Below are positions 3,800 to 55,739 of a stretch of DNA of 64,000 nt, piece after piece; the stretch's first letter is position 1, and every line of letters begins with the position of its first letter. The stretch spans positions 7,426 to 71,425 of the forward strand of contig JABLYA010000005.1 of NCBI GenBank assembly GCA_013177855.1, written 5' to 3'. Under the pieces are notes generated by a model, which ran no database searches, had not been told where the DNA came from, and saw only the letters and a program-made list of their open reading frames with translations. The stretch is from Ignavibacteria bacterium. GTDB taxonomy: Bacteria; Bacteroidota; Ignavibacteria; Ch128b. The position numbers and the translations under genes were made by a program.

Positions 3800-4243
3800 T
3801 TATACAAGTCTGTTTAATTTCTTGATACGAACAAGTCTTTTTATTACTTCTTCATTTGTTTCACGACCATTTAAATAATATTTTTTATTTGTAATCTGAT
3901 CATTCTTATTATACTTTATATATGCTGGTCCATTTTCATTATGTATAAAACCATTTTTGAGGAAATATTCACTTGATACAGTTAATTTATTACAAAATAC
4001 TTGTTCTAATTTATAAAAGTTATCATAGACGAATAAATGAAATTCTATAAAATCTTTAAATACTGTAGTTGTTCCAGTAGATTCTACGTCAAATGCAGAA
4101 ATCATATAACAATGATTTGCTATTTTAACCCAGGAAATATCCTCTGATTTTATTATTATAGATTTGCCTTTTTTAACAATATTATATTCATAAGGTAATT
4201 TATTTATCTTCTCTCTTATTTTAGCATTTGTAAAAATGTTCAT
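3800..4243 (-). CDS. Hypothetical protein with MORN-variant-like C-terminal repeat
   Basis: NGPAYIKYNKNDQITNKKYYLNGRE. Paralogous C-terminal logic to 4221..4571. Confidence 0.5.
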   Translation of the reverse strand: MNIFTNAKIREKINKLPYEYNIVKKGKSIIIKSEDISWVKIANHCYMISAFDVESTGTTTVFKDFIEFHLFVYDNFYKLEQVFCNKLTVSSEYFLKNGFIHNENGPAYIKYNKNDQITNKKYYLNGRETNEEVIKRLVRIKKLNRLV

Positions 4244-4571
4244 TTAACTTGCATCTTTTTTCTATCATTCTTTTAAGTTTCTTTTCTCTAAGAATTTGAT
4301 TCGCTTTTGGTCGCCATTCTGTTTCATTCATCGTTTTACCAAACAAATAAAAAAATCCTCTATTACCATTATGAAATTCTATAGCTGGACCATTTAGTCG
4401 GTGATAGACACCATTTTCTTTATATTCCCATCTATCTTTAAAACGAATCTTTTGATATTTAGTATTATCAACAAGCCATTCATTTACTTTTATTTCATTT
4501 TCGTAAAACTCTTTTAATTTCTGTTCTTTTTCGTTCAAATCAGAAAGTTGCATTATTTCATCGTAAGTCAT
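4221..4571 (-). CDS. Hypothetical protein with MORN-variant-like repeat
   Basis: NGVYHRLNGPAIEFHNGNRGFFYLFGK. The start was moved to ATG 4571 (MTYDEIMQ), which removes the overlap with the upstream gene. Confidence 0.5.
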   Translation of the reverse strand: MTYDEIMQLSDLNEKEQKLKEFYENEIKVNEWLVDNTKYQKIRFKDRWEYKENGVYHRLNGPAIEFHNGNRGFFYLFGKTMNETEWRPKANQILREKKLKRMIEKRCKLNEHFYKC

Positions 4572-4573
4572 AA

Positions 4574-4786
4574 TTAAAATTTTGAATATTTTACTAAATT
4601 TCCAACAAAATCGTGAATCCATTGACCAATAGCTTGACCTGATTCACTTGGAAAAATAATAAGAATTGATAGAATAACAATAGATATGATCCACCATTTC
4701 TTTTTATTCCAAAAGGCAATCAACTTACCTTTTAGTTTTCTCTTATTTAGTTCTTTCTGTTTTTCCTTAACTCTTAAATCTTCCAT
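4574..4786 (-). CDS. Small membrane protein (single TM helix)
   Basis: Hydrophobic core WWIISIVILSILIIF after a basic N-terminus. Confidence 0.4.
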   Translation of the reverse strand: MEDLRVKEKQKELNKRKLKGKLIAFWNKKKWWIISIVILSILIIFPSESGQAIGQWIHDFVGNLVKYSKF

Positions 4787-4924: not shown

Positions 4925-7456
4925 TTATCTATAATCACTTGACAAATTACCACCATAGAAATTACCTTTTATCCACATACCTGACAAATAATTTCCATTA
5001 TAAAAATCTCCATTATACCAAGTACCTTTATGCCATGTTCCATTTCTCCATATTGGAATATTTGATTCATTTGAATAAAATACTTTAACTTCAATATCAC
5101 TTATTCTTAATTGTTGAGTTACAACCAAATCTAAATCAAATGATAAAGAAACTCTTAATCTATTTTTAGCAGTTGATAATATTTTTGGGTTGTATAAATC
5201 TAAATTAAAAAATGTTTCTGTATCATCGTAATATATTTCTAATCCATTACCTTGATTATCAACTAGACCCCACATATCATCAACTCCACCAAAATACCAG
5301 TCATTATATGAATCTAAAGAAATTATTTTAGTTTTACCAATAGGTATATTTGGATAATTTATATTACCAGTTGAATATAAACTTGGTGTATAATAACAGG
5401 TATCGTTTATAATATCATACTCTTTATTATCACTATTATCAAAACCAGCAAATACCAAATCTTTAAGAGGTAACATAGCAGTTATATTTTTGTATGCTGT
5501 TCTGTAACTATTATCTTTTAAAACTTGTGTTTTAAATCTTATTGCATAACCATTTACTAAAGTATTTTGTATGTCAGTTACGAAATCATAATCAAAATCA
5601 AAATCTTGAAACGATAATATTGAACTCGTAACATTAATTCTATGTGACATAATACCAACATATTTAACTAATTTTCCAGAATTTGTTGGTGCATTAGTTT
5701 TGTATTTCTTTGCAACTGTAACAGATGTCGCACCAGTTGATAAAACATAAGATATTCCGTTGTAACTTGGATTTGTGTAACCTTGGTCTTGTTCAATATA
5801 AACATAGTCACCTGGTTTAAAATCATGAGTACCTATACCAGCAAATGTTACAACATTATATGTAGTTGATAAAGGTATTGCCATAAAACCACTTCCTCTT
5901 GTTATTGGTACACTTGGTTCAGTATATGTTCCAGCATATATATTTGTGTAATGCCAATATGAATATGGAGTTGTTCCATCAAATTTATCTAATTTAACAT
6001 TTCTTCTAACATAAACTTTTTGTGGACCCAAAGATATTGGTAAACCGTTTGTATATACAACTGCATTCCACATTCCTAAACCAATATTGGTTATGGATAC
6101 TGGCGAAAATTCATTACCACCTATATAGTAATTATACTGAAAATAGAAATCTATTTCACCAAAATCATAATAATTGGTTACAGATGTGTTATACATTGTA
6201 TTTAATTTATCAAATTGGAATGATACTATATTCGATTGTGTAAAAGTAAAGGCGCTAGTCGCTGCCGTAACACTTATAATATCAATATCAATTTCTTCTA
6301 TAAAATGTGATAATTCATAATAAGTATTTGATGAATTTAATGTATTAACATTAATAGAAGTTTTTGTTTGTATAGGTATTTCTGTATTTCCACTCCATTT
6401 ATAATCAAGTCTTAAATCTGTTTGTGAAACATAAATAGGTGAAGTCCAATCTGTTGCTTTTATATAACCAAAAATACCATTTTTCCACAAACCATTTTCC
6501 CAAGTACCCATCTTAAAATGTCCACCATACCAAATACCATTTTCCCAAGTACCATCATGCCATACGCTTAAATAGTTTTTAGAAGATTCAATAGGATTAC
6601 CACTATCATCTGTAACATAACCTGAAAACCATTCTCCACCTTTCCAAACACCATTATACCAATTACAAATAGCACTATTATTATCAGTGTCTAATGTTGT
6701 ATTTCCAAATCTACTAACAAGACTTCTATTCAATTGAGAAAATGTTCCATTCAACCAATCACCTTTTATGAAATTACCATTATACCAAAAGCCATTATAC
6801 CATGTATCACCGTTAAATGTACCGTTAAACCAATAACCATCTAACCATTTAGAATTAGTCATATTACCACTGGAATGACGACCATTTTTCCAAATACTGT
6901 TATAAAATTCACCATTTTGGAAGATACCATCAAGCCATACAGCAACATTTTTTTCTTCATATTGTATTGCACCGCCAATCGTACTTACAGCTTTTTTAAA
7001 ATTTGGATATTCATAACCTTCATAATTTGCATCATACAATATAAATTCTCTCCAATCTTCAGTAGTACCAGATAAACCAAATGTACCACTTCCAAAAATA
7101 CCTGTTACCCAAATACCATTATGAAATGTAGAATATTGATTTCCAACTTGTTTTATAGAGAATATTTCATTTAAAACGTCAAATTTATCTAATTGATAAG
7201 AATAAAATAGACCGTTTTTCCATATACCATTATAGAAATTGCCTGAATACCAAGTACCATCTTCCCATTCACCACAATACCAATCACCAAAATACCAAAC
7301 AATACCTCTATCATTTTCACCTATTACAGCATCTTTTACTTTAGCATTTAGCAACCAATTATATTTAATTTTAACCTTTTCTAATGACATTCCATTTACA
7401 AAAGTTACATTTGATTTTTCAAATTCTATTCCTTCTATATTTAATATTACTGACAT
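4925..7456 (-). CDS. Virion structural protein (tail fibre/baseplate-associated) with W/G-rich repeats at both ends
   Basis: 843 aa. Repeated G-x-W-x-N/D-G-x-F/W-Y motifs occur at the N- and C-termini (for example WYCGEWEDGTWYSGNFYNGIWKNGLFY). Directly abuts the upstream 1851-aa gene. Confidence 0.55.
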   Translation of the reverse strand: MSVILNIEGIEFEKSNVTFVNGMSLEKVKIKYNWLLNAKVKDAVIGENDRGIVWYFGDWYCGEWEDGTWYSGNFYNGIWKNGLFYSYQLDKFDVLNEIFSIKQVGNQYSTFHNGIWVTGIFGSGTFGLSGTTEDWREFILYDANYEGYEYPNFKKAVSTIGGAIQYEEKNVAVWLDGIFQNGEFYNSIWKNGRHSSGNMTNSKWLDGYWFNGTFNGDTWYNGFWYNGNFIKGDWLNGTFSQLNRSLVSRFGNTTLDTDNNSAICNWYNGVWKGGEWFSGYVTDDSGNPIESSKNYLSVWHDGTWENGIWYGGHFKMGTWENGLWKNGIFGYIKATDWTSPIYVSQTDLRLDYKWSGNTEIPIQTKTSINVNTLNSSNTYYELSHFIEEIDIDIISVTAATSAFTFTQSNIVSFQFDKLNTMYNTSVTNYYDFGEIDFYFQYNYYIGGNEFSPVSITNIGLGMWNAVVYTNGLPISLGPQKVYVRRNVKLDKFDGTTPYSYWHYTNIYAGTYTEPSVPITRGSGFMAIPLSTTYNVVTFAGIGTHDFKPGDYVYIEQDQGYTNPSYNGISYVLSTGATSVTVAKKYKTNAPTNSGKLVKYVGIMSHRINVTSSILSFQDFDFDYDFVTDIQNTLVNGYAIRFKTQVLKDNSYRTAYKNITAMLPLKDLVFAGFDNSDNKEYDIINDTCYYTPSLYSTGNINYPNIPIGKTKIISLDSYNDWYFGGVDDMWGLVDNQGNGLEIYYDDTETFFNLDLYNPKILSTAKNRLRVSLSFDLDLVVTQQLRISDIEVKVFYSNESNIPIWRNGTWHKGTWYNGDFYNGNYLSGMWIKGNFYGGNLSSDYR

Positions 7457-13036: not shown

Positions 13037-13047
13037 TTATATATTAA
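13037..13047 (-). promoter_or_regulatory. Conserved 11-mer TTAATATATAA (minus strand), candidate late promoter, 24 nt upstream of ATG 13012
   Basis: The same 11-mer occurs at a similar distance upstream of six or more genes. Confidence 0.5.
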
Positions 13048-21556: not shown

Positions 21557-21694
21557 TTTTCTTTAATATATAAGGAAATATATTTTATGTGGTTAAAATC
21601 TAAAGAAGGGAAGAACTTTCAAACAGAATTAACTCAAGATTTAATTTCAATTATTCATCATTTTTCTATGAAAATGTTTGCAACAAGAAAGTGA
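21557..21694 (+). pseudogene. tnpA: C-terminal remnant of an IS607-type serine-recombinase transposase (TnpA)
   Basis: ...KNFQTELTQDLISIIHHFSMKMFATRK resembles the conserved TnpA C-terminus (E-L-x-E-D-L-I-S-I-I-T-H-F-S...). The frame is closed by a stop at 21554-21556. Its stop overlaps the GTG of the TnpB-like gene. Confidence 0.5.
21563..21573 (+). promoter_or_regulatory. TTAATATATAA (plus strand) at the truncation point of the TnpA remnant
   Basis: Exact 11-mer. Confidence 0.4.
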
Positions 21695-22984
21695 AAACAA
21701 TTAAATTACCATATAAAACAACCGAAGATTTAACTTCTATATTCAAGCAATATTCCAATATTGTTAGGTATAGTTACAATCGTTTTCTTGAAAATAAGAC
21801 AGAAAAGGATATTAGAAAATTGTCTAAATCATTAAATTCAATTGATTTACTTAATTCTTGGTTAATTCAATGTGGTATAAAAGATGGTAAAGCAATACAA
21901 ACAAGATTTAAAACTGAAAAAGTAGTATTTGGTGGTAAACGCAATTTAATCAATAGATTAAAATCTAAAATAACTAAAGATGAATTTTCATTGAAAAGAT
22001 TATGTCCTATAAATATACAGGGTGAAGAACTTAAGCAGGGAAACAGAAATTTTAAGTTAGACATTATAGAAAACAATCAAATTATCTTTAAATTAAATAA
22101 AAATAAACACATTGAATTAAAATTACCTAAGTTACAATATAAAAAAAGAATTGTTTAAACTTCAACAATTAAATGAAATTAAACAAAATCAAAAAGGATA
22201 TACATATTCAATTAGATTTGATTTAAACAATATTTATATAAGTTTTGAAGAGTTTAAACAAGAACCGATTAAATTAAACGAGAATAGGTATTTAGGTATA
22301 GACTTGAACCCAGACACAATTGGTATTTCGGTTTTAGAAAACGATAGAGTGATTCATACTCAAGAATTTAGTTTAAAACCAATTTTTAGTAAAATTTTAA
22401 ATGAAAAATTAAGTTCTAATTCGGATAGGATGAAATATTTTCAAAACAAATTAAAATTTGAAACATTTGAAATATCAAAATCTATTTCATTAATTGCTAA
22501 ACAATTTAACTGTAAGTCAGTTTTCATTGAAGATTTACATTTTAAAGGTTCTTCAACGATAAAAATATCAAACAGGAAGAACAAAAATCTTTGGAAAAGA
22601 GAATTATTTATAAGCAATTTAACTAAAAGATTAAATATTTTAAACATAAAACTATATTTTGTTAATCCTGCTTACTCAAGTTTTATTGGAAACTTACAAC
22701 ACGATTATACTGATGCGGTCAATGCTAGTATTGAAATAGCAAGAAGAGGATTCGAATGTAGAATAAAGAAAAACAAGATGGGATTTTATCCAAAACTGTT
22801 GGTAAAACACCAATGGAAGGAAATGGCTACCAAACATACAGGTTGGAAGAAATTCTTTCTTGAAGTAAAAAACTCGAAATTGAAATATCGAGTTTCATTA
22901 GATGAATGTTTACATAAATTTAATGTTTTTAAGCAAAATTTAAGTCATAAAAGCATGGTTTTAAATTATGTTTTTTATGATTAA
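21691..22984 (+). CDS. tnpB: TnpB-like RuvC nuclease (IS200/IS605-IS607 accessory protein), split by a frameshift in an A7 run
   Basis: RuvC motifs YLGIDLN (D), VFIEDL (E) and DYTDAVNASIEIARRG (D). Removing one A from 22141-22147 joins the two ORFs as ...LQYKKELFKLQQL.... No CxxC zinc finger lies between the E and last D motifs. Confidence 0.75.
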
Positions 22985-40317: not shown

Positions 40318-41290
40318 ATGGTGACAGGATTTACATATGCAGATGATTACGAATCACCTGAGGAAAAACTTAGAAAAAAAAACGTGAAAAGAAACGTAAA
40401 CTTCGTGAAAAGAAAATAAAAAGAATTTTTAAAAATGAGTAATTTTATAGTAAGTGGTATTAGTTACTATCAACCATTTTATCAACCTACACAAATGGGT
40501 GTAACATCATATACATTTGCTTGATCTGGTACTTCTTCTTTAGAATCAGAAGAAGAAAGAGTTGTTAGAGTTTGCAAAAAGAGAAGAGGGACTTGCGAAA
40601 CAAAAAATTAGAACGAATTTATGGACGAGAATCAAAAGAAAAAGGTTCAAGACAAGTGGAGTGTGATATTGGACAAACTTAATGTTGATGAAGATAAAAA
40701 GGAATGGCTATCAGAATATGCTGAAATGCATCAAGCTCAAATATTTCAAGATACAGGAACAACAAATTCATTTCCATCATTATTACCTATTGCTAAAAGA
40801 ATCGCAGCCGGAACCATTGCTTTGGGATTTGATTATGAATCTGATGAAAGAATACAGCGAAGAAAAAGAATTCTGAAACTTAAAAGAATTTTAAGTGATA
40901 GTGAATTTCAAGATGTTGTATCAAAAGAAGAATATGAAGATATAATAGTTGAAAAGAAAGATTGTCATAACCCTGGTTTAGTTTCTGTGCAACCATTATC
41001 AGCACCAATTGGTATGTTATTTTATATGGATTTTATATATGAAAGTCCAGAAGAAAAATTAAGGAAACAACGAAACGAAAAACTCAAACGAATATTAGGT
41101 AATGATTCAGAAAGTGGAATATCAGGAGAAAATGAAGAAGATTTACAATGATGTTTGTTTTCATTCTTCGTTGCAACACACTATTTTAGAAAGCACATAG
41201 AAACGTGGATTGGTTGGATTACAGATAACAGAAAAAAGTTAAAAAATTATTAGGTAAAGACACTGTGTAAAGTGTTTTTTTTTTCATTTT
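40318..41290 (+). other. Array of about 5 diverged mini-modules, each an MCP-like hydrophobic strand followed by (Y/L)ES, an acidic patch and a basic helix ending (L/I)(K/E)(R/K)(I/L)(L/F/Y)G
   Basis: VTGFTYADDYESPEEKLRKK(fs)REKKRKLREKKIKRIF; GVTSYTFA*SGTSSLESEEERVV..LAKQKLERIYG; TIALGFDYESDERIQRRKRILKLKRIL; GMLFYMDFIYESPEEKLRKQRNEKLKRILG; ..ITEKKLKKLLGKD. Several frame breaks occur, including A9 at 40374-40382. Confidence 0.55.
40621..41151 (+). CDS. Paralog of the major capsid protein N-terminal region (about the first 150 aa) with basic-helix insertions
   Basis: DKWSVILDKLNVDEDKKEWLSEYAEMHQ compares with MCP KKWAPVLDHLQVSDIEKRTWMAEYAEMHQ. SLLPIAKRIAAGTIALGF compares with NLLPVSMKIAAQTIGLDL. 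GLVSVQPLSAPIGMLFYMDFIY compares with DLVAVKPASSPRLELLFVDFKY. Confidence 0.65.
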   Translation: MDENQKKKVQDKWSVILDKLNVDEDKKEWLSEYAEMHQAQIFQDTGTTNSFPSLLPIAKRIAAGTIALGFDYESDERIQRRKRILKLKRILSDSEFQDVVSKEEYEDIIVEKKDCHNPGLVSVQPLSAPIGMLFYMDFIYESPEEKLRKQRNEKLKRILGNDSESGISGENEEDLQ

Positions 41291-47511: not shown

Positions 47512-49491
47512 TTATCTCTTGATATAATCGTATATTTTATTCTTTTCTAAAAATAATTTTCTTAATTTTTTAGTTTCTGTTTTATTTTTACCCAATATAT
47601 AAACATATTTATGTTTTTTTGATGTTTTCCTTACTAGACAATTATTTAATTCTCTTTTTGAATATTCTTTTAAAAAAGTTGATACCTCTTGTGGCATGTT
47701 CTCCCATAAAATTTTATATTTTTTACCCCAATTCTCCTTCCATTCTATGTTATTTAGTTTTGCTATTTTTTGCATATACTTGATTTTTGTATAATTTCTA
47801 TTATTAACCCAACCTATATCTGGATTATTTAAATTAAAATACAATTTATCACTACCAAATTTTTGACCCAAATAATAAAAATTACATGCTTGATAAATAG
47901 TACCAATTTCTTTTGCTTCTGTATCAGAATATGCTTCAAATATCCTGAAATTTGTATTTTTAACCATCCATCTTATTGACCACATTAACAATTTAGATGC
48001 TAAATTTTTTGGTGTCCAAGATGCGCAAGCACCTCTACTTATCAATTTTTCTATATCCTTTGTATCGTCACCTAAAAACTTTGAAAAAGAATTAGGTATA
48101 GACATAATTATAACACCACCTATTATTCCTTTATATGTTGCAATAAATCTATGAGTTGGTCTATTTGGCATTTTACCTAACCATTCATATTTTTTAATAA
48201 ATTTTGTTATTTCTTTTAATGTCACTTTATCATTATTATCAACATATTTTAATTCAAAATCATTAATATTTATATCATTAATATCTATGTTTTTTGTTTT
48301 CAAATATTCGATATCATCATTTAAGGTATTTAATCTTAAATCATATTGCCAACAATGATTCTTATTATAAATTTCATGTTTAATCAATTGATCAAAGACT
48401 GTATAATTTTTATCTATAATAAATATATAATTATACCCTTGTTCTCTACAAGCTTTTTCTTTAATGATGTTTTTTTCTAAATGTTCTTCATACCACTTTT
48501 TAGATTTTATTTCTATAATTAAATTTAATTTTTCATAATAAAAATCAGAATAATAATAATGTTCTATACCATTATACTCATATTTAATTGTAGGACCTCT
48601 TTTTATACTTATTATTGAATAATATTTATCTAAAAAATCTTTTTCATATGTTCCTTGATAATATAAATCTGAATTTTCGTATTTTTCTATTTTATAACCA
48701 TTTTTTATCATCTTTAAATAAAATTCTTCTAATTGCATAGGATAATAAACACCATATTTTTCATATATTATATTCATTAATTTTTGTTTAATAATTTCAT
48801 TTTTCATTGGATTTTCTACACCAAATCTTTCTACACAAGTATTTTTAAATTTTAACCTATTGTTATAATTTTCATAACCATATTTTTCTTTTTTGGTGTT
48901 TTTTATTTTATTTTTTATTTCATCAGATTGTAATACAAAATCACAACCATATTTTTTATTATTTGTCATTTTTAATTTTGATAAAATTATATCAGATTGT
49001 AAAGCATAATCAACTCCAAATTTATTGTTCATTGTTTCTAATGTTTTATTTTTAAATTCATCAGTTTGAATATAATAATCTTTACCATATTTTTTATTAT
49101 TGGTTTCCTTTTGCTTTTCTATATTTACAAAATTTTCATTACCATATCTTTTATTTTTTGTTTCTTTAGTTTTTAAAATATATTCGTCCGTTTTTGTATA
49201 TGAATCAACACCATATTTCTTAATACAAGTTTCTTTTTTCTTGTTATCGGAACATTTTTTACAAGTATAATAACCATAATTATTAATATTCCTTCTGTAA
49301 GAAAAAATGGAAATTTTTTGAGTTTTATTACAAATATCACAAGAAACTTCAATTATAGTTTTACTACTAAAAGGTAATTCATCAGGTATAATTTCTATAA
49401 TATCACCAGATTTTATTTCATAACCTAAATTTTTGTAATGTGTTATGTTTTTATTGGTTGTTTTTATTGTTAGTTTTTTAGTTAAAATCAT
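47512..49491 (-). CDS. Fusion protein: Zn-ribbon, KYG-repeat region, PD-(D/E)XK-like nuclease core, then a C-terminal GNAT-fold Mom-like domain
   Basis: Repeats K(K/R)YG(V/K)D.Y.QTDE x about 8. SDFYYEKLNLIIEIKSKKW gives a D..E.K pattern. C-terminal YEWLGKMP...GGVIIM...ISRGACASWTPKNLASKLL...FEAYSDTEAKEIGTIYQACNFYYLG. Confidence 0.45.
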   Translation of the reverse strand: MILTKKLTIKTTNKNITHYKNLGYEIKSGDIIEIIPDELPFSSKTIIEVSCDICNKTQKISIFSYRRNINNYGYYTCKKCSDNKKKETCIKKYGVDSYTKTDEYILKTKETKNKRYGNENFVNIEKQKETNNKKYGKDYYIQTDEFKNKTLETMNNKFGVDYALQSDIILSKLKMTNNKKYGCDFVLQSDEIKNKIKNTKKEKYGYENYNNRLKFKNTCVERFGVENPMKNEIIKQKLMNIIYEKYGVYYPMQLEEFYLKMIKNGYKIEKYENSDLYYQGTYEKDFLDKYYSIISIKRGPTIKYEYNGIEHYYYSDFYYEKLNLIIEIKSKKWYEEHLEKNIIKEKACREQGYNYIFIIDKNYTVFDQLIKHEIYNKNHCWQYDLRLNTLNDDIEYLKTKNIDINDININDFELKYVDNNDKVTLKEITKFIKKYEWLGKMPNRPTHRFIATYKGIIGGVIIMSIPNSFSKFLGDDTKDIEKLISRGACASWTPKNLASKLLMWSIRWMVKNTNFRIFEAYSDTEAKEIGTIYQACNFYYLGQKFGSDKLYFNLNNPDIGWVNNRNYTKIKYMQKIAKLNNIEWKENWGKKYKILWENMPQEVSTFLKEYSKRELNNCLVRKTSKKHKYVYILGKNKTETKKLRKLFLEKNKIYDYIKR

Positions 49492-49617: not shown

Positions 49618-51345
49618 TTAGATAAGAACACCATTGTTGTCTGTAACACGGATTTCCATAAATTGTTTCCAAGGGAAGAAACCAATGTCTGTGATAGCGT
49701 AACGGCTTCTGATAAGCATTCTTGGTGCCCAAGTTGCTTCGGAAATCAATGAAATTGATTGTGCCATTAAGTAAGGAATGAATACAAGACCTGGTTGATC
49801 AACTGAATTCTTTCTTCCTAAGAAGATTCTGTTATCATCCCATCTCATGTAAGGATCTACATAGATTGTGATGTTACCAATGTTACCCATTGGGTACAAC
49901 TGACCATTTGTATTCAATTTACCAACGTTAGTTGGAGCGATTGTGTATCCAGCAACATCTTGTAATACGGAAGCTAAGTTACCGTTTGTGATAAGATATT
50001 GAGCAGGACCTACTCTACCGTCAGTAGCAATAAAGTTAGAAGCGTTGTTGATTTTAGCAACAAGTTTTCTTTGGATTGAGTGGTAAGTTTCACCACCAGG
50101 TGCAGGACCAGCAACTGCTGTGTAATCATCAACGTTAAAGTCGAATTTAGAATTACCTGAAGCGTCTTTTGGAGTTGTGTGAGATGCTCTGTTTTCGCCT
50201 GCAAGAGTTCTAATCTTATCAACAATTTGTTTAGAAATTGTTTGAGTAAGTTCGTTAATAAGAACTGATTCAAGTTTTTGTACAATGTCCATACCAGTTG
50301 AAGCTTTAATATCTTCAATTTGTGTACGTTTTAATGCACTTGAAATTTCGATGTCACCTACTGCAACAGATTTGGTGAATACGTCTGGACCAATAACACC
50401 AGGATAAGTGTTTTCATCTTCAAGACGGCTCATAGCATGGTTAATGTACCAACCAGCTGAGAAACCAGGAAGGTGATCTTCCATTGTGCTTACTAACTCA
50501 ATAGTTGCACCAGTAATTTGAAGTAATGAACTACCACTTAAATGATAGAAATAAGCACCTTCTAATTGAGATACAACTGATGTAGCGTAACCGAATGTGT
50601 TTTTATTTTGGTCAAATCCCCAATTACCTGCAGCAGCGTTGTTGTTTTGTCTGTATGATCTAAACATAGGAAGACCATCAACTCTTGAAAAACCTAAAAA
50701 TTCTAAAACACCAAGTTTATTACCTGTTGGAGGAGTTGTTGTAGGTTCAAATACGTTAGTGAATGAACCACCAGTTAAAGTAACAAATACTCTTTTATCT
50801 AATCCACCAATAAGTTCTTTAGTTGTTAAAACACCAAGTGTATATGTTAATTGGTTTAAAAGAGTTGTTTTATCAGTAACATTTAACTTGAAAACAAGTG
50901 GTTGTTCATCACCATCTAAATTACCATGACCTTGTGGATTGTTATCGTATTTAAAATCTACGAATAACAATTCTAATCTTGGTGAAGAAGCTGGTTTTAC
51001 TGCAACAAGGTCAAGACCAATTGTTTGAGCAGCAATTTTCATTGATACTGGAAGTAAGTTTTGAGCTACATCACCTGAACCGATAGCACCTGTAGTTACA
51101 GGAGCACCTGTACCTGTGTAAGTGTTTGTGCCACCATAAAGACCAGCACCACCGATAACGGGAGCTTGAACATTACCCATACCATAAATGTTACCTAATG
51201 TGCTATAAGCAACATTTTCATTAAGCTGATGCATTTCAGCATATTCAGCCATCCAAGTTCTTTTTTCAATATCACTTACTTGTAAGTGGTCAAGAACAGG
51301 AGCCCATTTTTTCAAAGCTTTTGCTTTATCTACGATAAAATTCAT
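49618..51345 (-). CDS. gp23: Major capsid protein, T4 gp23-like
   Basis: The N-terminal propeptide-like region is followed by LLPVSMKIAAQTIGLDLVAVKPASSP, comparable with T4 MVRRAIPNLIAFDICGVQPMNSP. Gene order is portal-protease-scaffold-MCP. The start is set at MNFIVDK because the 11-mer lies inside the longer ORF extension. Confidence 0.85.
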   Translation of the reverse strand: MNFIVDKAKALKKWAPVLDHLQVSDIEKRTWMAEYAEMHQLNENVAYSTLGNIYGMGNVQAPVIGGAGLYGGTNTYTGTGAPVTTGAIGSGDVAQNLLPVSMKIAAQTIGLDLVAVKPASSPRLELLFVDFKYDNNPQGHGNLDGDEQPLVFKLNVTDKTTLLNQLTYTLGVLTTKELIGGLDKRVFVTLTGGSFTNVFEPTTTPPTGNKLGVLEFLGFSRVDGLPMFRSYRQNNNAAAGNWGFDQNKNTFGYATSVVSQLEGAYFYHLSGSSLLQITGATIELVSTMEDHLPGFSAGWYINHAMSRLEDENTYPGVIGPDVFTKSVAVGDIEISSALKRTQIEDIKASTGMDIVQKLESVLINELTQTISKQIVDKIRTLAGENRASHTTPKDASGNSKFDFNVDDYTAVAGPAPGGETYHSIQRKLVAKINNASNFIATDGRVGPAQYLITNGNLASVLQDVAGYTIAPTNVGKLNTNGQLYPMGNIGNITIYVDPYMRWDDNRIFLGRKNSVDQPGLVFIPYLMAQSISLISEATWAPRMLIRSRYAITDIGFFPWKQFMEIRVTDNNGVLI

Positions 51346-51367
51346 AATTTTAATTGTTTTTTTTTTA

Positions 51368-51378
51368 TTATATATTAA
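51368..51378 (-). promoter_or_regulatory. TTAATATATAA (minus strand) 22 nt upstream of MCP ATG 51345
   Basis: Exact 11-mer. Confidence 0.55.
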
Positions 51379-51451
51379 CTCAAAAATGTCATTTTTTTCC
51401 ATTTTTATTGGTAATTAGGGTTTTACACATAACTACCTATTATATAATGAG

Positions 51452-52648
51452 TTAATATCCTAAATTTTTAATTTTTGAGATGAATGCATCTATTTGTTCA
51501 TCTGATAGAGAAGTATTATCTACAACTCTGTTTTCGTTAAGAATCTGTTTACTTTCATTAATCTTAGTATAAGATTCTAGTCTTCTGCTCTCCCAGAATT
51601 TTTCCATTCTTGATGGAGTAGTTAAATCAGGGTAAAGTTTTGCAGAATTGATTATACTCTTTTTGTAATTTTCGTTCAACTTTTCCCATATAGGTTTTAA
51701 TTCTGAAGGCATATTTTCAATCAATACATCTTCAAATGTTTTTTGAACTGAAAGAGCATTTTTAATAGCATAAAGTACTTGATTTTCTGTGTAGATAGGT
51801 TCTTTACTTTCGTTTATTGTAAAGATAACTTTTTCTTTATCTTCACTTGTAAGTCCGTACCATGCTTTTTTGTTCTTTTCTGTTAGGAATTGAACAAAAT
51901 GTGGTTCTTGATTTTCAGAAGCTTTACGTTTTTTAGTTTCTGTAATTAAGTTACCAATGTATGATTTTAATGAATTTTCGGTTTCCATAATTCTATCACC
52001 AATAAGGTTAACTTTACTTTCATGTACTTCTACTAATTCATTATTGTCAGCCATTTTAACTACTAATATACCTGTTGAAGGATTTGAAGCAAGAATTTCA
52101 CCTGTTCTATCTTCAATAGATACTGTTGCACCAGGAACTAATTGTACTTGTGCACCAACTGGTTCGCCTTCAATTGAATCAGGCATTTCACTATCAATTT
52201 CATTTGGTTGTGATTGAACTTGATTTTTTGGTTGTGATTGAACTTGATTTTTTGGTTGTGATTGAATTTGATTTTTTGGTTGTGATTGAACTTGATCTTT
52301 TGGTTGTGATTGAACTTGATCTTTTGGTTGTGATTGAACCTGAACTTTTAGTTGTGCTTGAGTTTGTACAGGTTCATCATCAGTTTCATCTGGTTCTTGT
52401 ATTTGTGATTTTTGAATGAAATCATCGTCTTCATCATAATACTTGTCTATATCAGAAACTTGTCTCATGTTAGGAATTTGCATTTGATTTCCAGCTTCAA
52501 AAATTTTTGAACTTTTAATAGATTCAATTGTGTTGTCAAGACCTTCAGCAATATAATTCATATATGCCTGTGTATCTGAAACATTTTCAGCAATGTATTC
52601 TGAATAAGCAATGTTGTTATCAACATGCTCAGCAATGTATTCTGGCAT
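51452..52648 (-). CDS. gp22: Prohead scaffold protein (gp22-like by position and composition)
   Basis: Acidic, repeat-rich and lying between the protease and MCP. Starts at MPEYIAEHVDNN (ATG 52648) or at the upstream ATG 52696. Contains (V/I)QSQPK(D/N)Q x6. Confidence 0.55.
   Translation of the reverse strand: MPEYIAEHVDNNIAYSEYIAENVSDTQAYMNYIAEGLDNTIESIKSSKIFEAGNQMQIPNMRQVSDIDKYYDEDDDFIQKSQIQEPDETDDEPVQTQAQLKVQVQSQPKDQVQSQPKDQVQSQPKNQIQSQPKNQVQSQPKNQVQSQPNEIDSEMPDSIEGEPVGAQVQLVPGATVSIEDRTGEILASNPSTGILVVKMADNNELVEVHESKVNLIGDRIMETENSLKSYIGNLITETKKRKASENQEPHFVQFLTEKNKKAWYGLTSEDKEKVIFTINESKEPIYTENQVLYAIKNALSVQKTFEDVLIENMPSELKPIWEKLNENYKKSIINSAKLYPDLTTPSRMEKFWESRRLESYTKINESKQILNENRVVDNTSLSDEQIDAFISKIKNLGY
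52206..52349 (-). repeat. 24-bp coding tandem repeat x6
   Basis: ggttgtgattgaacttgatttttt units are read directly. Confidence 0.9.
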
Positions 52649-53070
52649 AAGCAATGTTGTTATCAACATGCTCAGCAATATATTCTGCATAAGCAATGTT
52701 GTTGTCTAAGTTCTCAGCAAGATATTCAGAATAAGCAATATTCTTATCGAGATTTTCAGCAAGATATTCAGAGTATGCTATATTGTTATCAAGATTTTCT
52801 GCAATATATTCACTATATGCAATATTTTTATCAAGATTTTCTGCAAGATATTCTGAATAATCAATAGATTTTTCAATATTTTCTGCTAAATAATCAGAAA
52901 ATTGAATATTTTTATTAACATGTTCTGCTATATATTCTGAAAAATCAATATTTTTATCTAATATTTCTGCAATATATTCAGAATAGTTAATGTTTTTATC
53001 AAGTTGTTCAGCAAGGTATTCTGAATACTTAATAGCTTTTTCCAAATTCTCAGCTAAATAATCATTATGC
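52530..53070 (-). repeat. 42-bp (14-aa) coding tandem repeat x about 13 that spans the protease/scaffold gene junction
   Basis: NIAYSEYLAENLDK-type units. One unit (52639-52648) has GG where all others have a single G. Confidence 0.85.
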
Positions 53071-53954
53071 TTAGTGAGTTTTTCGGTAATTTCTTTTATT
53101 GACTTGTTTTCATTTACAACAATTTGAATACTATCAGCCAAATAATCAAGATATTTAGCAACTTTGTTTTGTTGCTCTAATAAGGTTTCATAAGACTCAG
53201 ATAATTTTATAATTTGATCAGGTTCAACTTTTCCATTTTTTACACTTTCTGTAAGAAGATATTTTACTTTTTCTAATTCTTCTTTTAAATACTCTGAGTA
53301 TTCAACCATTTGTGCTTTTGTAACAAAATCATTTTGGTTCATGTTGAATAATTCATTAATTTTTGACTCATCAGATATGTCGTATATCCTAAAGTTAGTT
53401 TCTTTTGTTTTAAATCCTAAAGATTCGTTTAATGTCTTTACCTCCATTCTAGCTGAACCGAAACCTGGATCAGCAACAGCATCATAGGTAAATAATTTTT
53501 TAACAGTAACGGTTCCATCTGATTCAGTAATACCAGCAGCTCTACTTGAAACAAAAATAGGGCAACCATCTTCGACTAATGCTTTAGCCTCCTTGCCCCA
53601 ATGTGTGTTTAACAATCTAATTTCACCATCTACTCTATTCTTTTCTTTATTATAAAAAAGTTTTTCAATAGTATGTGAAATTCTTTGTAAACTTGTATCA
53701 AATACGTCTGGATGATCAAACTCACCATATACAGCACCTAATGTATTCTTACGTTCTATCAATTCATTAAGATGTGGTAAGAATTTTTCTGCAGTATAGA
53801 TTCTTTCATTACGATTCATAACATCAAATTCGGTGAAAATACCTGATAGTCGATATTCTTTATTACCTTTACTATCAATCTTTACACCTTCATTAAGTTT
53901 TAAACCATTTGTGTTATTCTCTACAATTAGAACATACTTGTTTGGTTTTACCAT
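52629..53954 (-). CDS. gp21: Prohead core protease (T4 gp21-like) with a C-terminal 14-aa repeat extension
   Basis: The N-terminal 175 aa (SGIFTEFDVMNRNERIY...GEFDHP...SHTIEKL...VSSRAAG...YDAVADPGF) fit the gp21/U9 protease family pattern. It lies directly downstream of the portal gene. Confidence 0.75.
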   Translation of the reverse strand: MVKPNKYVLIVENNTNGLKLNEGVKIDSKGNKEYRLSGIFTEFDVMNRNERIYTAEKFLPHLNELIERKNTLGAVYGEFDHPDVFDTSLQRISHTIEKLFYNKEKNRVDGEIRLLNTHWGKEAKALVEDGCPIFVSSRAAGITESDGTVTVKKLFTYDAVADPGFGSARMEVKTLNESLGFKTKETNFRIYDISDESKINELFNMNQNDFVTKAQMVEYSEYLKEELEKVKYLLTESVKNGKVEPDQIIKLSESYETLLEQQNKVAKYLDYLADSIQIVVNENKSIKEITEKLTKHNDYLAENLEKAIKYSEYLAEQLDKNINYSEYIAEILDKNIDFSEYIAEHVNKNIQFSDYLAENIEKSIDYSEYLAENLDKNIAYSEYIAENLDNNIAYSEYLAENLDKNIAYSEYLAENLDNNIAYAEYIAEHVDNNIAYARIHC

Positions 53955-53975
53955 AGTTTATTTATTATTTTTTTA

Positions 53976-53986
53976 TTATATATTAA
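53976..53986 (-). promoter_or_regulatory. TTAATATATAA (minus strand) 21 nt upstream of ATG 53954
   Basis: Exact 11-mer. Confidence 0.55.
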
Positions 53987-54021
53987 CCTAAAAAACAGTT
54001 ATTTTTCCATTTTATAAGAAA

Positions 54022-54052
54022 TCAAAAAAAAAAGACCCTCCGAAAGGGTCTT
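54022..54052 (-). terminator. Rho-independent terminator after the portal gene
   Basis: Stem aagaccct/agggtctt followed by a U10 run on the minus strand. Confidence 0.7.
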
Positions 54053-54065
54053 ATAATATATGTTA

Positions 54066-55739
54066 TTAGAATGAAAATTGTGATTGTCCACCACTTTCTT
54101 GTCCACCACCTTGTGGAGGTGATTGTCCGCCTTGTGCACCCATTTGGGTACTACCTTGCATTCCACCTTGCATTCCACTAACACCTTCACTAGCATTAGC
54201 ACTACTATCAACAAGTTTATATTTCTTGTTTTCGGTAATATCAGCGTCAGTAAATTTCATAATTTTGCGAATAATCCATTCAACATGTAGATATGGTTTA
54301 CCCTCAGCATCTTGTAAATTTGAACTTAATGTAGAAGCAATTTCGGCTCTTTTTTGTAAGTTGTTTAAAAATTTCCATTCTTCAAATAATTCGTTTTTAT
54401 TAAATATAACTTGTATTGAAGCGTGAAATAGATTATCATCTTTCAATTCAGGAAAATCCATAATCATCTGAATCTTCAAAGGTTTAACGATTATTTCTTT
54501 GAAAATAGTTCTTAATCTCTTAATATAATTTTGGAATTTAATTTCATGTCTTGTCATTTCAGCAGTATCATTAAATAAATTTCCACCACCAGCATCGTCA
54601 TCAAATCTACTGAAAGGAAGTTTTGAAGCTCTTTTTAAGTTTTTGAAAAACCAAGTAAGCATTGAATCTTCATTCAAATCTGTGCCTTGTGCTGTGACTA
54701 TTTCTACTGTTGGAGTACCTAAATCAGAACTTGGGAACCAAAAATCTTTTGAGTGAGGAATATTGGTTGAACCATTTATTGATACAGTACCCATTGTATC
54801 ATCCCATTGTACATCTTCGTGATACTCTGACATCAATTCATATATTTGTTGTTCTGCTTGTTGTTTTGTTAAACCATTTGTAGGAATAATAAATTTTTTA
54901 TAAATTGCTGCTTGATTAATATTGTAAAGTAATCTTGTTTGTTCCAACATTTTTAATTGATTATAAGGTCTAATCAAATTTTCAACGTAAGATGTTTCTG
55001 CAAATTCATTATTATTAGTATACGATATATATATAATCTGAGCATCTAATAAAACTCTTCTAATTTGTGGATTATCAGGATATTGTATCCAAACTATTGT
55101 ACCAGAACCAGGATCAGTTGCAACAATAAGCGTCATGGGATCTATTGGTTGAAGGTCTATAATATTTTTTTGTTTGTTATCATAAACTATTTCATAAGCA
55201 ATATAACCATCAATTAAAAAATTTTTAAAATAATTCCAAGCTGTTATACCATCACTAAAACCAAAATTTCTATAAATTTTATTGAAATTTTCTTGCCATC
55301 TTTGTTTTATAGAATTATCAAACTCATCTGGTAAATCTTTTAATTTGCAAAAATAATTATCATCATTGTATATAATTGTTTCATCAGCAATTTGAGTAAT
55401 AAAATCTTTTATTTCATCTTTAATTGCATATTGTCTTAATATTTTTCTTTTATCAACATAGGCTCTATCAAGGTATGCTATAGATTTTCTATCAAGCATT
55501 TTTGATATAATTTTCTTAGAAAATATATCATACATATTGGTTGATAATGTTGTTTGTCCTTTTGGATCTTCATGTAAACCAATAGAGTACGTATTTTTAA
55601 TAATCATATTTTCATAATCCATACCCCAATTGGATAAATTTCTAAGCATTCTGTTGAACATACCACGATTTTCAATAGTATTGCCTAAGTTGTTCATTGT
55701 GTTTTGGTTATTGTTAGTATACCTATTATATGATGGCAT
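54066..55739 (-). CDS. gp20: Portal protein, T4 gp20-like
   Basis: 557 aa. ...HSKDFWFPSSDLGTPTVEIVTAQGTDLNEDSMLTWFFKNLKRASKLPFSRF resembles the gp20 core. It has a G/Q-rich C-terminal tail. The variant motif TTTATATATAC lies 21 nt upstream. Confidence 0.75.
   Translation of the reverse strand: MPSYNRYTNNNQNTMNNLGNTIENRGMFNRMLRNLSNWGMDYENMIIKNTYSIGLHEDPKGQTTLSTNMYDIFSKKIISKMLDRKSIAYLDRAYVDKRKILRQYAIKDEIKDFITQIADETIIYNDDNYFCKLKDLPDEFDNSIKQRWQENFNKIYRNFGFSDGITAWNYFKNFLIDGYIAYEIVYDNKQKNIIDLQPIDPMTLIVATDPGSGTIVWIQYPDNPQIRRVLLDAQIIYISYTNNNEFAETSYVENLIRPYNQLKMLEQTRLLYNINQAAIYKKFIIPTNGLTKQQAEQQIYELMSEYHEDVQWDDTMGTVSINGSTNIPHSKDFWFPSSDLGTPTVEIVTAQGTDLNEDSMLTWFFKNLKRASKLPFSRFDDDAGGGNLFNDTAEMTRHEIKFQNYIKRLRTIFKEIIVKPLKIQMIMDFPELKDDNLFHASIQVIFNKNELFEEWKFLNNLQKRAEIASTLSSNLQDAEGKPYLHVEWIIRKIMKFTDADITENKKYKLVDSSANASEGVSGMQGGMQGSTQMGAQGGQSPPQGGGQESGGQSQFSF

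Follow-up and report, generated by a model that had tools for sequence, protein, structure and literature searches.

The region 51452–53954 (minus strand) of the window, i.e., of the whole 64,000-nucleotide stretch of DNA analyzed here, was initially annotated as a prohead protease gene and a scaffold gene separated by a single extra base. Judging by its sequence, the region holds one protease–scaffold gene and not two. Since the relatives are fused and no sign of an evolved split or of a programmed frameshift was revealed, we infer that the native state in this megaphage lineage is a fused gene and that the split is a lesion peculiar to this contig. We take it to be neither an evolved gene boundary nor a programmed frameshift. 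The extra base itself is probably, though by no means certainly, an error made locally, during assembly or consensus calling, within a tandem repeat, which is the most likely of the explanations considered; a real recent mutation, either tolerated or defective, retains a smaller but substantial share of probability.

Organization of the Protease–Scaffold Gene

The protease ORF occupies positions 53954–52629 of the minus strand (441 aa, with a TGA stop at 52631–52629), and the downstream, scaffold ORF occupies positions 52648–51452 of the same strand (398 aa counted from its ATG; the ORF listing program starts it further up, at TTG 52696). Relative to the protease, the scaffold is read in the +1 frame. 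Deletion of one base at 52644/52645 converted the whole gene (51452–53954) into a single 833-aa ORF without a stop, in agreement with the fusion of about 830 aa anticipated in the initial annotation, and the two ORFs are thus best described as halves of one gene. The repaired translation is collinear, end to end, with five fused homologues. Its protease (200 aa) is followed by a helical segment, by 13 units of 14 aa and by an acidic stretch; after these come a Gln-rich 8-aa repeat, a small beta-barrel and the helical domain that forms the C-terminus.

The gene lies on the same strand between a portal gene (Portal_T4, 54066–55739, E 2e-67) and a gene for a gp23-type major capsid protein (Gp23, 49618–51402, E 6e-27). 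A terminator-like hairpin after the portal gene (54032–54052, minus strand) marks the start of the protease–scaffold transcription unit, and a promoter-like motif, TTAATATATAATAAAAAAA, is located upstream of the protease start (53968–53986, minus strand). The core of this motif occurs 10 times against 1.3 expected, and the element was also found upstream of the protease–scaffold gene in the nearest relative, L015.

The N-terminal part of the protein (approximately aa 1–200; 53355–53954, minus strand) is, by profile comparison, a serine protease of the T4 gp21 type. Pfam family PF03420 (Peptidase_S77) matched aa 34–147 of the protease ORF (E 7.7e-8; 32.5 bits at a gathering cutoff of 27), and PHROG 207 (“head maturation protease”) matched it with E 8e-33. 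The assignment to the family follows from a profile match above the curated threshold and from the position in the head module beside the portal and major capsid protein genes. His81 (in GEFDHP) and Ser136/137 (in VSSRAAG) are candidates for the catalytic residues, and all aligned relatives retain the two motifs. A sequence search of the PDB with the protease recovered no gp21 structure.

The 398-aa half showed no match to Pfam, PHROG or PDB sequences and is presumed to be the scaffold because of its position, its composition and its fusion to the protease: it lies between the protease and capsid genes, is helical and repetitive, and contains multiple candidate protease sites. It includes a second tandem array of 24 bp × 6.6 (QSQPKNQV; 52203–52361, minus strand; TRF score 262, 94% matches), which forms a Gln/Pro-rich linker; in several relatives this stretch corresponds to an N-gap or contains a frameshift. 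The C-terminal 237 aa (51455–52165, minus strand) are conserved, with a mean column identity of 62% in alignment A1, and presumably represent the end that binds the shell or the portal. The AF2 model of this domain (pLDDT 74.8) contains four strands, forming a small beta-barrel, followed by 11 helices, and a Foldseek search with the model gave only weak KOW/Tudor-like matches to the barrel (E ~6e-3).

The 14-aa Repeats and the Extra Base

The first array was detected by TRF as 10.6 copies of a 42-bp unit (52583–53027, 80% matches, score 380). Read in register, it comprises 13 units of 14 aa with the consensus NIAYSEYLAENLDK (52532–53078, minus strand). The protease ORF was expected to run into about 10 copies and the scaffold ORF to open with two to three more; we found 10 full units before the break, in the protease frame, then a broken one, followed by two further units in the scaffold frame (2.6 repeats on that side). 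There is one [IL]AE motif per unit, and the repaired protein as a whole contains 39 [IL]xE motifs against 14.9 ± 3.4 in shuffled sequences, 13 of them at an exact spacing of 14 residues.

Every repeat unit is 42 nt long except the one at 52658–52616, which has 43 nt: AACATTGCTTATGC[C]AGAATACATTGCTGAGCATGTTGATAAC. The extra base is seen as CC on the coding strand (GCC AGA) and as GG on the plus strand (52644–52645); at this place, ahead of GAA/GAG, every relative has just one base. It lies outside any homopolymer, and the two units that flank it differ from each other by one substitution. Past the insertion, the truncated protease ORF ends at TGA 52629–52631 (minus strand) after four out-of-frame codons (RIHC), and the shifted frame runs into TGA, TGA and TAA in close succession. 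The claim that one extra base separates the two ORFs and ends the first was thus borne out, with all its coordinates. The initial annotation also described the units as uniform but for this one; this is true of their length, but not all of them read tattctgcat/tgaat, as the codon choice varies.

The same base was thought to place an ATG in the scaffold frame. The insertion does bring the downstream codons into the frame of the ATG that heads the downstream ORF (52646–52648, minus strand), but it does not create this ATG, being located 3′ of it. A TATGC within Tyr-Ala codons yields this ATG by chance in the +1 frame, and the previous unit contains another one (52690).

Quality of the Assembly and Other Broken Genes

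We considered whether the window belongs to an error-prone assembly, but this found no support: 12 long ORFs (31 kb in total, up to 1851 aa) stay open across 20 homopolymers of at least 7 nt in DNA of 25% GC. A random sequencing indel would not be expected in an assembly that is clean elsewhere. Among approximately nine genes that could be compared with relatives, the protease–scaffold gene alone is frame-broken. An alternative genetic code was rejected as well: stops in the window comprise 40 TAA, nine TGA and six TAG, and the long ORFs are open under code 11. Code 25 is unlikely, given that the TGA of the related locus L011 is the sole in-frame TGA in a gene of 838 codons.

It should be mentioned that a TnpB-like gene at 21691–22984 is frame-broken relative to its intact homologues (a net difference of 5 nt). 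It belongs to a mobile element; we rejected its split as uninformative, since decay is common in such elements. The overlapping small ORFs at 3800–4786 look like separate paralogues.

A real but disabling insertion would imply that a non-viable or helper-dependent genome dominates the assembled consensus. The private and unadapted character of the lesion is consistent with this, as is the broken TnpB-like gene. However, a genotype without a working scaffold should not attain the abundance needed for a 98-kb contig, and the decayed TnpB-like gene is a poor guide to the genome as a whole. We regard a disabling insertion as improbable.

Comparison With Related Loci

The family comprises over 4,700 homologues (E ≤ 1e-10), most of them unannotated. 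Both the protease and the C-terminal domain are encoded without interruption by a single ORF (median span, 803 aa) in approximately 100 distinct loci of metagenomes and IMG/VR; the fused loci make up about 100 of the 103 resolved, and about three are interrupted. The 119 closest homologues of the protease ORF point the same way: all but three have the length of fused proteins (679–738 aa), the rest being 669, 588 and 456 aa long. The huge-phage records LR756500-504 and LR745206 each contain one ORF of 632–807 aa counted from the first Met (six records but five distinct sequences, the LR756501 and LR756503 matches being identical), and Lak-A1 megaphage has a fused ORF of 595 aa. A split conserved among relatives, for which the initial annotation had allowed, was not what the orthologous loci revealed.

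The nearest relative, L015, encodes a protein of 836 aa with 84.3% nucleotide and 84.4% amino acid identity. The window differs from it by indels of 6, 9, 3 and 3 nt and by exactly one indel of 1 nt, at 52643–52645, which is the sole one that is not a multiple of three. The repaired junction peptide, NIAYAEYIAEHVDNNIAYAEYIAEHVDNNIAYSEYIAENVSD, is the same as in L015. In the DNA alignment with five close relatives the extra base appears as a single-column gap, and the same gap was seen against L008, L009, L011, L012, L013, L017 and L019. Exact look-ups of both window proteins, aimed at a second assembly of the same phage, returned no record. Neither form of the junction pattern, that with the extra base or that lacking it, had a match in IMG/VR or JGI metagenome contigs.

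The first search with the scaffold ORF gave several short proteins on long contigs, which suggested recurrent fission in the close subclade. Most of these cases are due to gaps of 100 N within the repeats of the protease–scaffold gene (L008, L012 and L013) or to an assembly riddled with indels (L010), and real interruptions were found in L009 and L011 only. The impression of recurrent fission reflected sampling bias, as the wider sample is fused in about 100 of 103 loci. In L009 the frame shifts to +1 at a 1-nt insertion located in the Gln-rich repeat. The L011 gene is interrupted by an in-frame TGA, which aligns with a Gly of the relatives, and eight codons further on it has an ATG where the relatives have Leu.

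Because L009 and L011 carry other interruptions of the same gene, between the protease and the C-terminal domain, real and tolerated splits have to be taken into account; the TGA of L011 is a substitution that is hard to blame on assembly, and a new ATG follows it shortly. A tolerated recent fission would mean that the 441-aa protease with its 10 repeats and the 398-aa product with 2.6 repeats and the scaffold are made separately, the latter from ATG 52648 or by re-initiation after the TGA, which lies 17 nt downstream, and that the halves co-assemble via their common 14-aa repeats. The repeats left on both halves and a window otherwise free of frame breaks in long ORFs agree with this, and T4-like phages such as S-SKS1, with separate genes (gp21 of 217 aa and gp22 of 351 aa), indicate that a two-protein system is workable in principle. 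On the other hand, the insertion is private to one contig, whereas about 100 relatives are fused. The locus shows no adaptation: the ORF ends after the out-of-frame codons, and no start signals have arisen. Moreover, a rate of about three interruptions in 103 loci is compatible with errors or defective variants. Overall, we consider a tolerated fission unlikely, though worth keeping in mind.

About as doubtful, if not slightly more so, is a broader proposal in which natural fission inside an oligomerizing 14-aa array leaves the protease to be recruited non-covalently by repeat-to-repeat pairing; L009 and L011 would then indicate a lineage that tolerates, or moves toward, a T4-like two-gene state.

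Search for Signals of Initiation and Frameshifting at the Junction

The ATG at 52648 has a poor initiation context. Its start-context score (−7.45) is below those of all 50 gene starts in the window (7.1 ± 4.4, minimum −2.65) and equals that of the median internal ATG (−7.4 ± 6.1 for 1256 internal ATGs). No TTAATATATAA promoter motif was detected inside the protease–scaffold gene, including the stretch ahead of the scaffold ORF. Both the random-like context of the ATG and the lack of a promoter motif count against a tolerated fission. Nor is the arrangement that of a scaffold nested in frame within a protease gene: the two frames are offset by +1, no promoter motif was seen within the gene, and the internal ATGs have a poor context.

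The initial annotation had also raised a frameshift that sets the protease-to-scaffold ratio. In this case most ribosomes would stop at TGA 52629–52631, and a fraction would shift to +1 within 52709–52629, making the fusion. Shifts to +1 at stop codons are known from prfB and from the structural genes (capsid and tail) of Listeria phage PSA. The +1 frame is open for approximately 80 nt before the stop, so that any +1 shift there would yield the fusion. L009 also needs a +1 shift, and its site, ATT GGG CGA, would permit re-pairing from GGG to GGC before a presumably rare codon, CGA.

Nevertheless, reading through 52709–52629 we found no slippery sequence, no codon able to re-pair in +1 (GCC to CCA, TAT to ATG and TGC to GCT all mismatch) and no run of identical bases that could serve transcriptional slippage. 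AGA is the usual Arg codon in AT-rich genomes, and therefore a pause at it is not expected. The downstream fold, computed for 121 nt from the site, is unremarkable (z = −1.14; 26 of 200 shuffles fold as well). No Shine-Dalgarno-like stimulator is present at the junction, and Shine-Dalgarno sequences are not used in the phage. The two-frame arrangement is not conserved: about 100 relatives read one frame through the site, none of them has a frameshift there, and the site is absent from every relative, including L015 at 84% nucleotide identity. Finally, such recoding would be expected to give an excess of truncated protease and little C-terminal scaffold, which is the reverse of the T4 ratio. 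A ratio-setting frameshift is thus very improbable, the least probable of the alternatives considered.

Discussion

Two of the possibilities raised for the split, an error that hides a fused gene and a very recent fission, still stand. We favor the error because the insertion is private, because the start context of the downstream ORF is poor and because the base falls in a repeat of the kind that assemblers struggle with, as the N-gaps in three relatives illustrate. Arguments against an error are the cleanness of the assembly elsewhere, the position of the base outside any homopolymer and the different interruptions of the gene in L009 and L011. If the extra base is real, it would be a very recent mutation on which selection has yet to act.

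With the fused gene as the native state, the following scheme can be proposed. The fusion would carry the protease into the prohead as a part of the scaffold core. When the shell is complete, the protease would cut after Glu; the [IL]-A-E of each unit resembles the T4-type site, so that the rod of repeats would be cut into short peptides able to leave the head.

In annotations, the pair of ORFs should be entered as a single protease–scaffold gene with a suspected frameshift, and not as a novel gene pair or a recoding site. More generally, sequence comparison suggests that a large megaphage family joins a T4-type prohead protease to a scaffold of 14-residue units, each with a likely cleavage site, and such units fit a scaffold that is cut to short peptides at maturation. 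A 1:1 fusion raises the question of how these phages set the protease-to-scaffold ratio. If the split is true, it would offer a natural experiment on whether the protease must be linked covalently in order to enter the prohead.

In T4, the protease gp21 cleaves behind the Glu of ITE/LTE-type sites, and gp22 is thereby degraded to short fragments; there are 576 copies of gp22 to 100 of gp21 (PMC5694885). The gene studied here resembles the T4 gp21/gp22 system (gene order 20-21-22-23) in its Peptidase_S77 domain with candidate His and Ser motifs, in the position of the protease between the portal and a gp23-type major capsid protein, and in a scaffold part rich in [IL]xE, the T4-type cleavage motif. 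It differs in that T4 and T4-like cyanophages have the protease and the scaffold as two genes with their own starts, whereas the megaphage lineage has one ORF, and in that the scaffold half has no detectable similarity to any Pfam or PHROG family and contains two tandem-repeat arrays.

Fused or nested protease–scaffold genes are represented by lambda C/Nu3, Mu I/Z and P2 gpO. In these systems, as in herpesvirus UL26/UL26.5 and the actinophage protease–scaffold–capsid fusions, the protease is attached covalently to the N-terminus of the scaffold and is carried into the procapsid, as would be the case here. They make free scaffold in excess through an in-frame internal start or an internal promoter, while our gene has neither an internal promoter motif nor a credible internal start, and its second ORF is in the +1 frame and not nested in frame. 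Programmed +1 frameshifts of the prfB and Listeria phage PSA type are similar in that a +1 shift just before the stop would be needed to join the ORFs, but the junction lacks a re-pairing P-site codon, a stimulator and conservation.

Protease–scaffold fusions have been documented previously (PMC11565193; PMC7302621). The closest counterparts are the fused ORFs of huge phages (LR756500-504 and LR745206; Al-Shayeb et al., 2020, PMC7162821) and of Lak, which are direct homologues with the same architecture and 34–67% amino acid identity over the protease and repeat part. The 14-aa repeats are common to the huge-phage ORFs, whereas Lak is without them. All these ORFs are uninterrupted, and the extra base is present in the window alone.

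Organization of the head module and the extra base

On the minus strand, the head module comprises a gene for a T4-type portal (54066-55739; Portal_T4, E 2e-67), ORFs for a protease (441 aa, 53954-52629) and a presumed scaffold (398 aa, 52648-51452), and a gene for a gp23-type major capsid protein (ORF as listed, 49618-51402). The 441-aa ORF matched Peptidase_S77 (T4 gp21) above the Pfam threshold and PHROG 207 'head maturation protease' (E 8e-33); its putative active site comprises His81, within the motif GEFDHP, and Ser136/137, within VSSRAAG. The 398-aa ORF had no family match in Pfam and PHROG searches.

Tandem Repeats Finder revealed a 42-bp array of 10.6 copies (52583-53027) and a 24-bp array of 6.6 copies (52203-52361), both in minus-strand orientation. 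Read in register, the former consists of 13 units of 14 aa with the consensus NIAYSEYLAENLDK. All of its units are 42 nt long except one of 43 nt (52658-52616), where GCn-GAA is replaced by GCC-AGAA; the extra base appears on the plus strand as GG at 52644-52645. Downstream of this base the protease ORF ends after four codons (RIHC), and it is the +1 frame that carries the remaining repeats and the scaffold. Deletion of one base yields a stop-free ORF of 833 aa, which confirms the view of the initial annotation that a single odd-length unit separates two ORFs otherwise forming a fusion of about 830 aa. The ATG at 52648 does head the scaffold frame, as had been proposed, but the insertion is not its source: the triplet comes from Tyr-Ala codons read in +1, which yield an ATG in the preceding unit too. 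The 24-bp array, located in the scaffold half, encodes QSQPK(N/D)QV; the matching Gln-rich region is broken or replaced by an N-gap in several public assemblies of relatives.

Fused and interrupted genes in relatives

The window belongs to the lineage of the huge phages LR756500-504 and LR745206, the Lak megaphages being more distant. Each of these six records, which represent five distinct sequences since LR756501 and LR756503 gave identical matches, contains one ORF of 632-807 aa, and the repaired 833-aa window protein is collinear with these ORFs from first to last residue. The 119 database proteins most similar to the protease ORF are 679-738 aa long, i.e., of fused length, with three exceptions (669, 588 and 456 aa). 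A C-terminal-domain profile search of JGI metagenomes and IMG/VR, followed by classification, revealed about 100 distinct loci with the protease and C-terminal domains in a single uninterrupted ORF. Lak-A1 also has a fused ORF (595 aa), without the 14-aa repeats, whereas in the T4-like cyanophage S-SKS1 gp21 and gp22 are separate genes.

The nearest relative, metagenome locus L015 (Ga0172375_10014644; 84.3% nucleotide and 84.4% amino acid identity), has a fused gene for 836 aa. Alignment with the window shows length changes of 6, 9, 3 and 3 nt and a lone 1-nt indel, which falls at 52643-52645; its junction peptide is the same as the repaired window peptide. Therefore, as judged from these alignments, the lineage ancestrally had the fusion and has kept it almost throughout, and the insertion occurs in the window contig only.

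Several short proteins found on long contigs by a scaffold-ORF search suggested recurrent splits, most of which were accounted for on inspection. Three contigs (L008, L012, L013) have 100-N scaffold gaps inside the repeats, and L010 is an indel-riddled assembly with broken capsid and thymidylate synthase genes as well. At the site of the window's extra base, the reading frame is maintained in all the inspected contigs. Genuine interruptions, away from that position, were found at two loci. The first, L009 (JGI 3300033146, Ga0366841_1006230), carries a +1 break at 4995-5030, where one extra G (ATT GGG CGA) in a Gln/Glu/Val/Pro-rich repeat of the same gene results in ORFs of 588 and 283 aa with a 26-nt overlap; since the GGG precedes CGA, a GGG-to-GGC slip would be possible. 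The second, L011 (JGI 3300014204, Ga0172381_10042749), has an in-frame TGA at 2932-2961 (SVQ*QPVG versus SVQGQPVG, with Gly, in relatives) and, eight codons further, an ATG in place of Leu, giving ORFs of 609 and 229 aa.

Origin of the extra base

Programmed recoding, in which a +1 shift would join the two frames, appears very improbable. The 80-nt stretch with an open +1 frame lacks homopolymers as well as codons able to re-pair after a +1 shift, the RNA fold from the site onward is ordinary (z = -1.14), and none of the relatives compared has the two-frame arrangement at this site. Moreover, truncated protease would dominate the products of such a shift and complete scaffold would be scarce, the reverse of the 576 gp22 to 100 gp21 of T4 (PMC5694885).

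Signs of an evolved split were likewise absent from the start context, promoter motifs and hairpins within the window. Gene starts here have no Shine-Dalgarno sequence and are strongly A-rich from -20 to -1. With a position matrix built from 50 window gene starts, these scored 7.1 +/- 4.4 (minimum -2.65); the ATG at 52648 scored -7.45, equal to the median of 1256 internal ATGs, and candidate starts near it scored no better. A promoter-like core, TTAATATATAA, occurs 10 times versus 1.3 expected, mostly just 5' of ORF starts, including those of the protease, capsid and other genes; the motif scan detected none inside the protease-scaffold gene. Terminator-like hairpins flank this unit, with none inside it. 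At the protease and capsid genes, the core belongs to a longer element, conserved over about 45 nt, AAAATGGAAAAA..TTTTT.AGTTAATATATAATAAAAAAA (53968-54012 and 51360-51400, minus), which is placed 12-25 nt 5' of the start and is also present upstream of the homologous gene in L015. This element is likely a phage (late) promoter. Further core copies are at 13037, 21187, 27934, 27967, 57092 and 60233 (minus) and at 21563 and 60910 (plus).

We lean towards a local assembly or consensus error, because the insertion is private and shows no adaptation (the stop follows just four codons in the wrong frame, and start signals have not evolved), because the two repeat units flanking it are identical except for one substitution, and because other assemblies break or gap in the repeats of this gene. 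A random error is disfavoured by the otherwise clean window: twelve long ORFs (31 kb in total, up to 1851 aa) are open across 20 homopolymers of at least 7 nt at 25% GC, the protease-scaffold gene alone is frame-broken among about nine genes comparable with relatives, and the extra base is outside any homopolymer. The L011 lesion is a substitution, hence hard to ascribe to assembly and unlikely to be an artefact, so occasional real interruptions of the gene seem to exist. A real insertion with a tolerated split is unlikely, and a real but defective gene is a still poorer candidate. The one-base boundary, which the initial annotation framed as potentially meaningful, is probably not biological.

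Other features of the window

The capsid ORF listed from 51402 (minus) takes in the promoter-like element; its true start is probably the ATG at 51345 (minus; MNFIVDKAKALKKW...), in agreement with the N-termini of relatives. The capsid gene and its terminator are directly followed by a gene for a 659-aa protein (47512-49491, minus) with DUF7487 (E 2e-41) and Mom-like (E 5e-10) domains. A 176-aa ORF (40621-41151, plus) shares with the capsid protein an N-terminal 34-residue motif, KW..LD.L.V....K.W..EYAEMHQ (53% identity, E 4e-9), which, by analogy with T4 internal head proteins, may be a common prohead-targeting or propeptide sequence.

A TnpB-like gene (21587-22984, plus) is split between two frames (21691-22158 and 22151-22984). 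When the parts are joined, the resulting 430-aa protein aligns in a single piece to LR756500 (73% identity) and Lak phages, with a net 5-nt gap in the DNA alignment near 22124, and the gene is probably a decaying mobile element. The upstream 35-aa fragment (21587-21694) may be left over from a different gene. Two small paralogous ORFs (1388-1630 and 2226-2474, plus) have near-identical N-termini, MKKI(K/E)K(F/I)ICKIVKKLNKKEYEK(V/A)VNYVYDF, and a signal-peptide-like ORF sits between them.

Putative function of the fused protein

By analogy with T4, the protease domain, being fused to the scaffold, would become part of the prohead core. T4 gp21 cleaves after Glu at [IL]xE-type motifs, reducing gp22 to short fragments (PMC5694885). 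The 14-aa units, predicted to be helical, each contain one [IL]-A-E motif, and the whole protein has 39 [IL]xE motifs versus 14.9 +/- 3.4 in shuffles. Once the shell is complete, the repeat rod would be cut into peptides of about 14 residues able to exit the head. For the conserved 237 aa at the C terminus, a small KOW/Tudor-like barrel with helices is predicted (pLDDT 74.8); no solved scaffold protein resembled this model in a structure search, and by analogy the domain likely contacts the shell or portal. Well-known examples of protease-scaffold fusion come from herpesviruses and from small actinophages (PMC11565193, PMC7302621), and the window gene is a further case, within the gp21 family and with a suspect frameshift.
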